Shown here: positions 51,601-62,004 of the stretch, piece after piece
Layout: each line of letters opens with the position of its first letter
Position numbering within the stretch: position 1 is the stretch's first letter
Assembly: GCA_035221665.1 (NCBI GenBank)
Contig: CM069151.1
Span: forward strand, 34,100,001-34,164,000
Source of the DNA: Okamejei kenojei
Taxonomy: Eukaryota
Length of the DNA stretch: 64,000 nt
Reading direction: 5' to 3'
Program-made: the position numbers and the translations under genes
The notes under the pieces: model-generated
Told to the model about the DNA's origin: nothing
Seen by the model: the letters and a program-made list of their open reading frames with translations, nothing else
The model's database searches: none

Positions 51601-54600
51601 ACTAGACTGAGTTAGTTTCAGGGAGCAGTGGATGGGGAGCAGGCTGTACCATCACAAGAAGAACAGCATTGACTTGGGTCCGGGGCTGGATGCTGGCAGC
51701 TCCCAGGGTCAGGACAGTGCAGCTTGGAACAAGACACAGCACCACCTTGGCACATACACAGCTGGCATCCAGACTGCCAGCTCGAACCATCCACGTGACT
51801 CATGCCCATTTCATCTATACAACCTGGAATGAAGAAATAAGCCATAAAGACGATGAGCAAACATGCAGCAGAGTGAGCTACGAGCTAAATAATGGGAGGC
51901 ACATTCTGGGATCAAGGACTGATTAGATAGAGAGAGAAACGATAAAAACTGGTACATAAAGCAGCTAAAGCTGCAAAAGATTAATATTAGTACCAGTCAA
52001 TACATTCAAGCATAAATGATTCAAATGCAGAACATATTAGCAAGAAGCTGCCCAAATTATTTCCCAGAGCCTAAGCATCCATTCCCTCGTGTGCTATTGT
52101 AGGAATCTGGATCCAATAATTATCCTGATACAAGGCTTGATGTTGGGATTACCAGGGGGTCGCAATGTGTTACACAACTTGGGAAATTTTCCACAGCCAA
52201 TTCCATCAGGATGTTGTGATCAGTATCGTCCAAGTCCAGAGGCAAATGCCAAGCTTTGGTTGGAGAAAGCCAAAAGTGATTGCAACTGTACGTCCCAAAG
52301 TGAATAGAGACCAGTGTGAGTGAAGGTGGAGAGAACTGGATATGCTCAGATACCAACCATTAATATTAGGTTTCACGCACAGCCCTTCAATCTTCTCACA
52401 TTATATCAACCACAATCACATTATATCGACCGATCAAAGTGAATGCGTAAACACAGTCTGGTCCAACCCCGGCCTTTATAGCTCAATGCAGCCCCTCCTT
52501 TACCCAGAGCCCTTCTAACTTAGCCCCTTCCGTCGCTGCACTCAACACAGACCCTTCTCTCCCTACAGCCCGACATTGCCACTCTCCTCACCACAGCCCC
52601 ATCTCTTTCCACAGTCCGACCCAATCACTCCACTCTGCAAAGTCCAATGCATCCTCTCCTTTCCCTCCACAGCCACCCCCTCCCCGGAGACCTACATAGC
52701 CCCTGTCCACAATGCAGTCCAGTTCCTATGTACAAACACAGACCGATCTCCTGCCTGGCCATCCCAGCCCAACACAGTCTCTTCACCTCACCTCTGAGTC
52801 GCCCCTTCACCTGCTCAAACAGGTAGCAGAGTGGTGCTACTGATGGTGCAGTTGCCTCACAACTCCCTTGCCCTGGCTTTGATGCTGACCTCCAGTGCAA
52901 TGTGGAGTTGTCACTTGTGCCCATGTGCTCCAAATCCCTCTCACATCCCAAGACATGCTAGTTGGCAGGTCAATAGGCCACAGCAAATCACTCCAAGTGT
53001 CATTGGAATAGAGAGGTGTCAATGGGCATGTGAGAGAGATCAGGTTGCAGGGAAGTAAGAGGGGGGGTGAGATTGGTGGGGTTGCTCTGGGAGATGGCAT
53101 TGGCTGGCCAAATGGCTTCCTTCTATGTCTTAGGTAAATGTGGAAAATCAACTTCTCCCTTCCTGTGGTCCAAACCAACAGTTCGTCTCCCCTCCCCAAA
53201 GCCTAAAACAATTCCTCCGTAGTGCCGAAGATAATCACAAAAAGCTGGCGTAACTCAGCGGGACGGGCAGCATCTCTGGAGAAAAAGAATGAGTCATGTT
53301 TCGGGTTGAAACCCTTCCTCAGACTAGTCAGAGGAAAGGGAAACGAGAGATACAAACAGTGACGTGGAGAGATATAGAACAAATGAATGAAAGATATGCG
53401 AAAAAGTAACGGTGATCCAAAACGTCACCCATTCCTTTTCTCCAGAGATGCTGCCTGTCCCACTGAGTTACTCCAGCATTTTGTGCCTGTCTTTGGTTTA
53501 AACCAGCATCTGCAGCTCCTTCCTATACATACCTCTTTCGAGCCATTCTTGCCCCCCCCCACTCGCTCCCCTCAGCCTAGCCATAACCCGGCCCCAAACT
53601 ATAAACCCAGCGAGCAGGCAAAGTGAAGAGATTGACTGGGAAGCGCTAGTAACCGACCCTGACACATGACATGGCGGCCTGTCACTCGGTCGTACCACTC
53701 GCTGAAGCAGGCTCCGCAGCGGTGGACCCGGCACTCCGCGTTTGGGAACCCCGGGCACTCCGTGTGCTGGCACAGGTCAGGGCAGCTGACTGGCTGAGTG
53801 CCTATCGGGCAGCCCGAATACCAATGCAGCTCGAAACAAAACCTAGGAGGCGAGAGAAAGAAGGCAAGGGAGAGGTCAGCAAAGCAGAGAAAGGTTCACA
53901 TCATCACCCTGTGCACGAACATGCGTGATTAGTAATAGTGTCAGGGGTTACGGGAAGAAGGCAGGAGGATGGGGTTGAGAGGGAAAAATAGATCAGCCAT
54001 GAATGAATGGCAGAATAGACTTGATGGGCCAAATGGCCTAACTCTGCTCCTATGACTGATGAACATGAACATTGAGAGCCATGGGATTAAATATGGGAGG
54101 GTTACCACATCAAGGTTTATAAAATAATGTGCTGTAAATAGGGATGATAGTTGAGTCTTTTTCGAAAAATCTAAAACTGGATGGCATATGTTTAATGTGA
54201 GGGGGAGAAATTTAAAAGAGGAGAACGTTATTTTACATAGAGGATGGTGGTTATATAGTGCTAGCTGCCAGAGGAAGTGGGAGAGAGGCAGGTACTTTTT
54301 ACGGCATTTTAAATAAATTTTGACAGGTTCTTGGGCAGGAAATGAGCATATTGCAGACAGATGGGATTAACATATATAGGCATAATTGTTAGCACGGATG
54401 AGTTGGGTCTCGGAATTTTGTAACACAAATTATAATCAGTTCAAGTACTGATAGCTAAAACAACAATAATAGCAACAACAAACGTTTATAAAGTATCTTT
54501 AACATGGTAAAATGTCCCTTAGTGTTTCACAGGAGTATTACCAAACAAAACATGACATTGAGGTACATAAAAATGATACGGGGACAGATTACCACATGAC

Positions 54601-62004: not shown

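Follow-up and report, generated by a model that had tools for sequence, protein, structure and literature searches.

A stretch of 64,000 nucleotides from the skate Okamejei kenojei (assembly GCA_035221665.1, contig CM069151.1, positions 34,100,001 to 34,164,000; hereafter the window) carries on its minus strand part of a gene of the Kielin/KCP family, and within that gene a block of four exons that encodes an EGF-like domain, a Kunitz domain, a tyrosinase-fold domain, two sets of G[YF][DN]xx (GYD) repeats and a cysteine-rich domain. We refer to this block as the cassette. By mapping the gene with the Rhinoraja RefSeq kielin (3,204 amino acids) on 200 kb of upstream and 120 kb of downstream DNA, we obtained a single colinear kielin gene of about 106 kb, with the order signal–TSPN–coil–VWC1–cassette–VWC array–VWD; a few short exons fell under the 70% filter and are unmapped. 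The features are listed below in the order of transcription, with window positions unless a genome coordinate is given.

G000:C21:34,185,280-34,185,170 (window-extended 85280), minus strand: signal-peptide exon, the signal peptide being judged by eye
About G000:C21:34,171,944-34,171,391 (window-extended 71944), minus strand: TSPN/LamG exon or exons
G000:C21:34,169,711-34,169,640, minus strand: short exon between TSPN and coil
About G000:C21:34,165,780-34,165,525 (window-extended 65780), minus strand: coiled-coil exon, a 36-residue helix in the model
G000:C21:34,164,434-34,164,251 (window-extended 64434-64251), minus strand: VWC1 exon, ending in phase 1
62005..64000, minus strand: intron upstream of the cassette, leading to 5' exons outside the window
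61865..62004, minus strand: cassette exon 1, EGF-like domain, phase 1-0 (Pfam EGF E 3e-4, 21.4 bits against a cut-off of 21.5)
60171..61086, minus strand: cassette exon 2, Kunitz domain, G[YF][DN]xx repeats, FnI/VWC-like mini-domain and first tyrosinase helix, phase 0-1
57257..58643, minus strand: cassette exon 3, tyrosinase-fold domain, second GYD repeat block and helical domain, phase 1-2
53658..53842, minus strand: cassette exon 4, Cys-rich beta domain, donor GTCGGT, phase 2-1
51650..51823, minus strand: first VWC exon past the cassette (exon 5), phase 1-1, splice-joined to exon 4 in contig 7 of read run X5
522..51823, minus strand: kielin VWC array, about 30 exons in the window, colinear in tblastn with ray and skate RefSeq kielins

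The cassette exons are all bounded by AG and GT and, as an earlier sequence-only reading of the window had it, form a stop-free chain (phases 1-0, 0-1, 1-2 and 2-1) into the VWC exon at 51823-51650. Together they amount to 2,628 nucleotides, or 876 codons, with phase 1 at each end; because the phase is 1 both at the end of VWC1 and at the start of exon 5, the cassette can be skipped in frame. The same reading had rightly seen no signal, TSPN or coil exon in intron 4, as these exons lie upstream, beyond base 64000. Its picture of the block as an N-terminal fusion and its product of 2,075 amino acids have to be revised: the block lies inside the gene, as a cassette that keeps the frame and separates VWC1 from the VWC array, and the product is about 3,200 amino acids long because the signal, TSPN, coil and VWC1 exons lie beyond the window end. 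The signal and TSPN/LamG exons are 81-98% identical to RefSeq kielin N termini. At the other end, the VWC array runs on past window base 1 to VWD exons 13-20 kb beyond it (98% identical to Amblyraja where covered) and ends near G000:C21:34,079,600; the ray ortholog (Rhinoraja protein) has 27 VWC stretches and a VWD.

Splice junctions were sought in assembled contigs of four of the 16 read runs with exon 3, no run being recorded as RNA, and were read from the contig position table, the joints table being swamped by repeats. In run X5 (organism B), contig 7 (2,047 nucleotides) crosses exons 2, 3, 4 and 5 without introns, at positions 1-270, 271-1647, 1648-1832 and 1833-2006, with offsets of 2-3 bases that match the GT/GTA ambiguity at exon starts; contig 10 of that run links exon 1 to exon 2. 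Contig 5 of run X4 (organism A; 5,579 nucleotides) holds exons 2-4 without introns and has 1,306 nucleotides past exon 4 and 1,785 nucleotides past exon 2. The X4 exon-5 bin had a depth of 10.4 against 8.95 expected, whereas the pure intron-4 bin had a depth of 1.07 against the 32.6 expected under read-through. No junction was bridged by the listed pieces of runs X6 and X7. A skip junction was not seen in the examined contigs, which drop rare variants and cannot show absence. Intron 4 contains on its minus strand no AATAAA or ATTAAA, and a single TATAAA at 52480. The exon 4–5 junction is real, and it joins cassette and array into the one giant product that the sequence-only reading had proposed; no fewer than two related organisms have the cassette as an open, spliced frame.

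Exon 5 itself (51650-51823) is a retained ancestral, optional repeat. It is similar to the corresponding repeat in Lingula, molluscs and hagfish; the Mobula X3 and Narcine models skip it, and none of the shark, sturgeon and salamander models seen contains it.

On all sequence tests (signal, TSPN/LamG, VWC array, VWD, and orthology and synteny), the skate gene belongs to Kielin/KCP. By region, its protein is 95-98% identical to the Amblyraja radiata model, with 95.5% identity to Amblyraja X1 in the cassette versus 96.6% in the VWC array, and Xenopus Kielin and the Amblyraja protein share 55% identity over 1,965 columns. Exon 3 has a single match in the 2.76-Gb genome, both by DNA and by protein, on which ground we rejected a paralog or duplicate copy; contigs C3 and C6 carry the remaining PF00264 matches of the genome. 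An ATP6V1F-type gene (PF01990) stands tail to tail with kielin, 73 kb downstream (G000:C21:34006682-34006849), an arrangement that we take to match the human KCP gene order, and the same contig has an IRF-domain gene at a distance of 3.8 Mb. The single genome match, the ATP6V1F-type neighbour and the Xenopus identity support orthology in the choice between ortholog and paralog that the sequence-only reading had raised.

Pfam recognizes Kunitz (PF00014, E 1e-15) and Tyrosinase (PF00264, E 4e-26) domains in the cassette, and no Pfam match was obtained for exon 4, whose Cys-rich domain has homologous counterparts in invertebrate kielins and in the choanoflagellate Salpingoeca. AlphaFold2 was run on the Chiloscyllium ortholog (77% identical over exon 3) with a 39-row alignment. 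The resulting shark module model had a predicted template modelling score (pTM) of 0.75 and a mean predicted local distance difference test score (pLDDT) of 75; because the pTM holds across the module, the model suggests a compact unit. The EGF fold is found in it with Z 6.9, and its tyrosinase domain matches Streptomyces tyrosinase (1wx2) with Foldseek E 1e-14 and with VIA Z 30, at a root-mean-square deviation of 1.8 Å over 234 residues.

The fold is kept and the copper site is broken. Type-3 copper sites follow the patterns H1(n)H2(8)H3 for CuA and H1(3)H2(n)H3 for CuB, as set out in a passage of a survey of the family (PMC3658974). In alignments to hemocyanins and to 160 related domains, the skate ligand positions read K, N, H for CuA and S, H, Y for CuB, so that neither three-histidine site is present and two of the six copper histidines are kept. 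None of the 69 named animal kielin-type domains has more than three of these histidines: none is left in 9 domains, one in 15, two in 25 and three in 20. We rejected an active tyrosinase on these ligand counts, and by its sequence the domain is a pseudo-enzyme. It is nevertheless well conserved, at 70-73% identity between ray and sturgeon, coelacanth or salamanders, versus 61-64% for the VWC array, and at 54% between ray and brachiopod. With the type-3 copper alpha subclass (Streptomyces and Bacillus tyrosinases, molluscan hemocyanin units) the skate domain shares its fold and the FxxWHR and DPxF motifs; unlike them, it has four of six copper ligands replaced and sits in a BMP modulator. Hexamerins are copper-less members of the hemocyanin fold, and by analogy the skate domain would work more like them than like the copper enzymes.

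The rest of the cassette is less uniform. The exon-2 model (pLDDT 84) contains a six-cysteine Kunitz fold (Z 9-10; 9.2 VIA-wide) and a weak FnI/VWC-like match (Z 3.7). Most full-length modules carry a Kunitz domain, which is among the least conserved cassette parts in jawed vertebrates (47-68%). Its P1 residue is N in the skate and N, H, K, N, K, T, N, T and P over nine vertebrate rows, and the loop after P1 is 3-6 residues longer than in Salpingoeca rosetta, in which P1 is K. The GYD repeats have a period of 5 and were modelled confidently; neither the ESM Atlas nor Foldseek (E<=0.001) gave a match for this region, and VIA-wide nothing scored above Z 3.7 outside the Kunitz domain, a result that does not by itself establish a new fold. 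The window exons had no match at E<=1 to Pfam Decapeptide (PF25296). Prokaryote-like pentapeptide proteins match PF25296 weakly, and the period of 5 is common to these and to the cassette repeats. Runs of G[YF][DN]xx of up to 101 units occur in the prokaryote-like proteins P0012-P0032, several of which are fused to UvrD-type helicases.

To place the cassette among animals, we searched long proteins with the shark module. This returned 36 matches, 35 of them animal, from rays, sharks, chimaera, sturgeon, coelacanth, newt, hagfish, two teleosts, tunicates, crinoids, a brachiopod, molluscs and arachnids; further searches added cassette carriers in a hemichordate, a prawn, more teleosts, Limulus and amphioxus. 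Most invertebrate proteins have two tandem modules, which are found in public models of molluscs, brachiopod, hemichordate, tunicates and arachnids. In the Myxine kielin (P0065), a long insertion of low complexity separates TSPN from the coil, and the copper site retains none of its histidines. RefSeq and GenBank models named 'kielin/chordin-like protein' have the architecture of the skate gene in rays, sharks, sturgeons, coelacanth, salamanders, Lingula, Limulus and crinoids (for example, XP_032895844.1, XP_078275752.1 and XP_069085493.1, all automatic predictions).

This distribution, from rays to invertebrates, upholds the suggestion of the sequence-only reading that the architecture is ancestral, and does away with the idea of a form special to the skate, because public gene models show the cassette from rays to brachiopods. 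The architecture itself is already in automatic annotations, and in print we found one brief mention, in a passage of PMC11667028, of '>3,000 amino acid' tyrosinase sequences that include a kielin/chordin-like domain. Our search of the open-access literature, supplements excluded, yielded no description of the cassette, the dead site or the choanoflagellate relative, and the available part of the alpha/beta/gamma survey of type-3 copper proteins (PMC3658974) gave 0 matches for Kunitz or von Willebrand.

Whether the cassette is used varies among vertebrate gene models. Include and skip isoforms are both known from paddlefish and sterlet gene models, and the difference between Polyodon X1 and X2, and between Acipenser X1 and X2, each pair on a single contig, is exactly an 892-amino-acid EGF-to-Cys block. 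The block is included in all 13 named batoid models and in all four salamander models, and is absent from 10 of 10 Xenopus and six of six caecilian models. Xenopus Kielin (Q9IBG7; 2,327 amino acids) is like the skate protein in its TSPN/LamG, VWC array (26 Pfam stretches versus 27 in Rhinoraja) and VWD. Xenopus Kielin and mammalian KCP differ from it in having, as described, no 876-amino-acid cassette, and in Xenopus VWC1 meets the next VWC directly at the cassette borders, the same junction as in the skipped sturgeon and paddlefish form.

A VWD-region search covered the best 120 of 366 proteins of 891-2,837 amino acids, a size window that leaves out full forms. The tyrosinase motif was found in 0 of 118 of these (the query and one FCGBP set aside), as the size window predicts. 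Short-form matches among these best 120 came from frog, caecilian, lungfish, gar, bowfin, bichir, lizards, snakes, turtles and most teleosts. No mammalian sequence stood among the matches listed, and the mammalian architecture is taken from papers; a passage of PMC10315795 gives mammalian KCP 18 cysteine-rich repeats and a VWD. The short mammalian form, to which the sequence-only reading had drawn attention, is not a mammals-only pattern, because frog, caecilian, lungfish and reptile models are short too. With the cassette missing from the studied frog and mammal proteins, the textbook Kielin is likely to be a shortened form.

Teleosts show a further arrangement. In Centroberyx and sockeye, the annotated kcp is without the block, and the block is a separate locus on a contig of equal size; because the teleost block is annotated apart from kcp, absence from a gene model is not genomic loss. 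Teleost block models (Arapaima, salmonids, smelt, Centroberyx, Serrasalmus) end in a W-stop at the exon-4 donor, with stand-alone models ending C(Q/H)(G/D/E)W* and listed as 'uncharacterized' loci, and one smelt model (Hypomesus) continues into the VWC array. The W-stop models hint, from their sequence, at a terminal-exon isoform. From Arapaima to percomorphs, W-stop block models were seen as P0009, P0010, P0070, P0071, P0384-P0390, P0392, P0393 and P0398.

The cassette module has relatives outside animals. A HMMER search of cluster representatives returned Salpingoeca rosetta PTSG_11343 (XP_004987702.1) and S. urceolata P017573. The S. rosetta protein has the same Cys-Kunitz-GYD-FnI-tyrosinase-GYD-Cys order, and the S. 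urceolata protein matches Kunitz, GYD and tyrosinase. Unlike the cassette, both keep all six copper histidines and have no VWC array or VWD; S. rosetta further differs in its Kazal domains and in a C-terminal hydrophobic stretch that, by eye, is membrane-anchor-like. We built an unrooted IQ-TREE phylogeny (LG+G4, with the SH-like approximate likelihood ratio test, SH-aLRT, only) from 108 of 160 domains, leaving out close relatives, fragments under 170 amino acids and most hemocyanin units. Animal kielin domains formed one clade (SH-aLRT 96), split into module 1 (98) and module 2 (99), with every vertebrate row inside module 2; a choanoflagellate-type clade (99), to which both Salpingoeca proteins belong, was sister to the animal kielin clade (91). 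Because the distant relatives mostly keep six histidines, we infer that the ligands were lost rather than never present in the animal branch. The cassette module is likely, judging from these comparisons, to predate animals.

BMP and TGF-beta activity is attributed to the VWC array of KCP. Secretion, BMP enhancement and TGF-beta suppression are established in frog and mouse and would carry over to the skate protein by orthology. According to a passage of PMC6750614, KCP augments BMP and inhibits TGF-beta signalling, and Xenopus Kcp, which is without the cassette, is active and is essential for frog heart valves. On balance, we favour a model in which the cassette has no catalytic role and instead anchors secreted Kielin as a unit for binding and scaffolding, and in which its inclusion tunes where the BMP-binding array acts. 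Its conserved surface would likely serve as a binding scaffold for matrix or partner proteins and, because of this, inclusion or skipping would set how tightly and where Kielin is held.

As part of this model, a module from a choanozoan copper enzyme would have been fused to a VWC array before the protostome–deuterostome split, lost its dicopper site, been duplicated, and then been reduced to copy 2 in vertebrates. More tentatively, and with somewhat less than even confidence, we propose that Kielin as a whole descends from a pre-animal cell-surface copper enzyme. A Kunitz-GYD-tyrosinase-Cys module, which in choanoflagellates still has six histidines, would have been fused to a chordin-type VWC array, died as an enzyme and duplicated in early bilaterians. 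In vertebrates it would have become a splice-controlled matrix-tethering switch, included in sharks, rays and salamanders, optional in sturgeons, used in teleosts through an alternative terminal exon that gives a short TSPN-coil-VWC1-module protein, and dropped in frogs and amniotes.

Several points weigh against these proposals. The run types behind the junction evidence are guesses of a tool, and X4 is tagged 'probably DNA' although its contig is intron-less. No skipped isoform appears in skates or rays, in which all 13 batoid models include the block and the contigs show inclusion alone; because of this, splice-optional use is shown in chondrostean gene models only. In the choanoflagellate-type clade, six histidines are found in only five of eight rows, and its join to the animal clade has a support of 91 on a quick unrooted tree without human TYR/TYRP rows. 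One module-1 protein (P0088), outside the 69 domains counted above, keeps four histidines, and in the rows from cartilaginous fishes, sturgeons, coelacanth, salamanders and Arapaima three histidines (H3, H5 and the one preceding H6) never vary. Finally, the role of 'matrix anchor' is predicted solely from anatomy and conservation.

Because those three histidines stay invariant, some metal binding may persist, and the cassette could bind a metal or a phenolic ligand through its remaining histidines, working either as a sensor or as an enzyme, weak or altered in its activity, and so coupling Kielin to matrix cross-linking. The intact fold and a tyrosinase domain more conserved than the VWC array speak for this, and a passage of PMC3658974 provides a precedent in TYRP2/DCT, which changed its metal. 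However, the kept ligands do not come from one and the same copper site, the remaining teleost rows and hagfish have R or Q in place of H5, salmon, Umbra and hagfish have Q or N in place of H3, and nine of the 69 domains have no histidine at all, so that we consider this alternative unlikely.

Less probable still is that the cassette acts mainly as a Kunitz protease inhibitor, shielding Kielin or its BMP cargo from cleavage. The clear six-cysteine fold and its presence in most full-length modules fit such a role, but the variable P1, the lengthened loop and the low conservation of the domain in jawed vertebrates do not. Just as improbable, in our view, is that the cassette is dispensable, a relic or passive spacer whose skipping or loss has no effect. 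Its absence from the Xenopus and caecilian models, and from the listed matches of 891-2,837 amino acids (a size range that leaves out full forms), would agree with this, as would the activity and essential role of the cassette-less Xenopus Kcp (in the passage of PMC6750614 cited above) and the eight of 11 listed read differences in exons 3-4, a biased subset, that alter a residue. Set against it are a frame that is open and spliced in related organisms, an identity to Amblyraja close to that of the array, and a tyrosinase domain still 54% identical between ray and brachiopod.

A separate or nested gene, in which exon 4 reads through to a stop (with the peptide noted earlier, [19 protein letters not shown]) and KCP starts elsewhere, as the sequence-only reading had allowed, has in its favour the weak donor GTCGGT and the teleost blocks annotated as separate loci ending at the exon-4 donor, but is so improbable for the skate that we rejected it, given the junction in X5 contig 7, the lack of X4 read-through depth, an intron 4 without AATAAA, the signal, TSPN, coil and VWC1 exons upstream of the block, and full-length models in many species. 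The two-gene model is refuted for skates by the junction; a modified form of it may apply in teleosts.

The reading of the cassette as a non-catalytic scaffold bears on how Kielin/KCP has been studied. Work on this BMP enhancer, TGF-beta suppressor and heart-valve gene has been done in frog and mouse, both of which have the short form; if the copper-enzyme origin is true, the functional work on Kielin/KCP all concerns a derived short form. On the same condition, the cassette would be a fourth, overlooked vertebrate tyrosinase-fold protein, with a repeat fold without a solved relative. If the form of about 3,200 amino acids is ancestral, axolotl, sturgeon and skate permit a direct include-versus-skip comparison of the way in which the matrix holds a protein of the chordin family. 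With the cassette, the type-3 copper family gains a pseudo-enzyme branch that had not been described and that can be traced to choanoflagellate relatives with six histidines, and it would be a clear example of how an enzyme module was reused in an animal regulator of signalling.

Two smaller observations concern the gene models and the introns. The Rhinoraja and Amblyraja isoform X3 models (P0332, P0333) are without signal and TSPN and have a short unrelated N terminus directly at the EGF exon, possibly an internal start or a model artefact. Intron 3 holds, at about 54700-56200 of the window, a degenerate reverse-transcriptase fragment of a long interspersed nuclear element with very high repeat depth, which by eye we take to be CR1-like.

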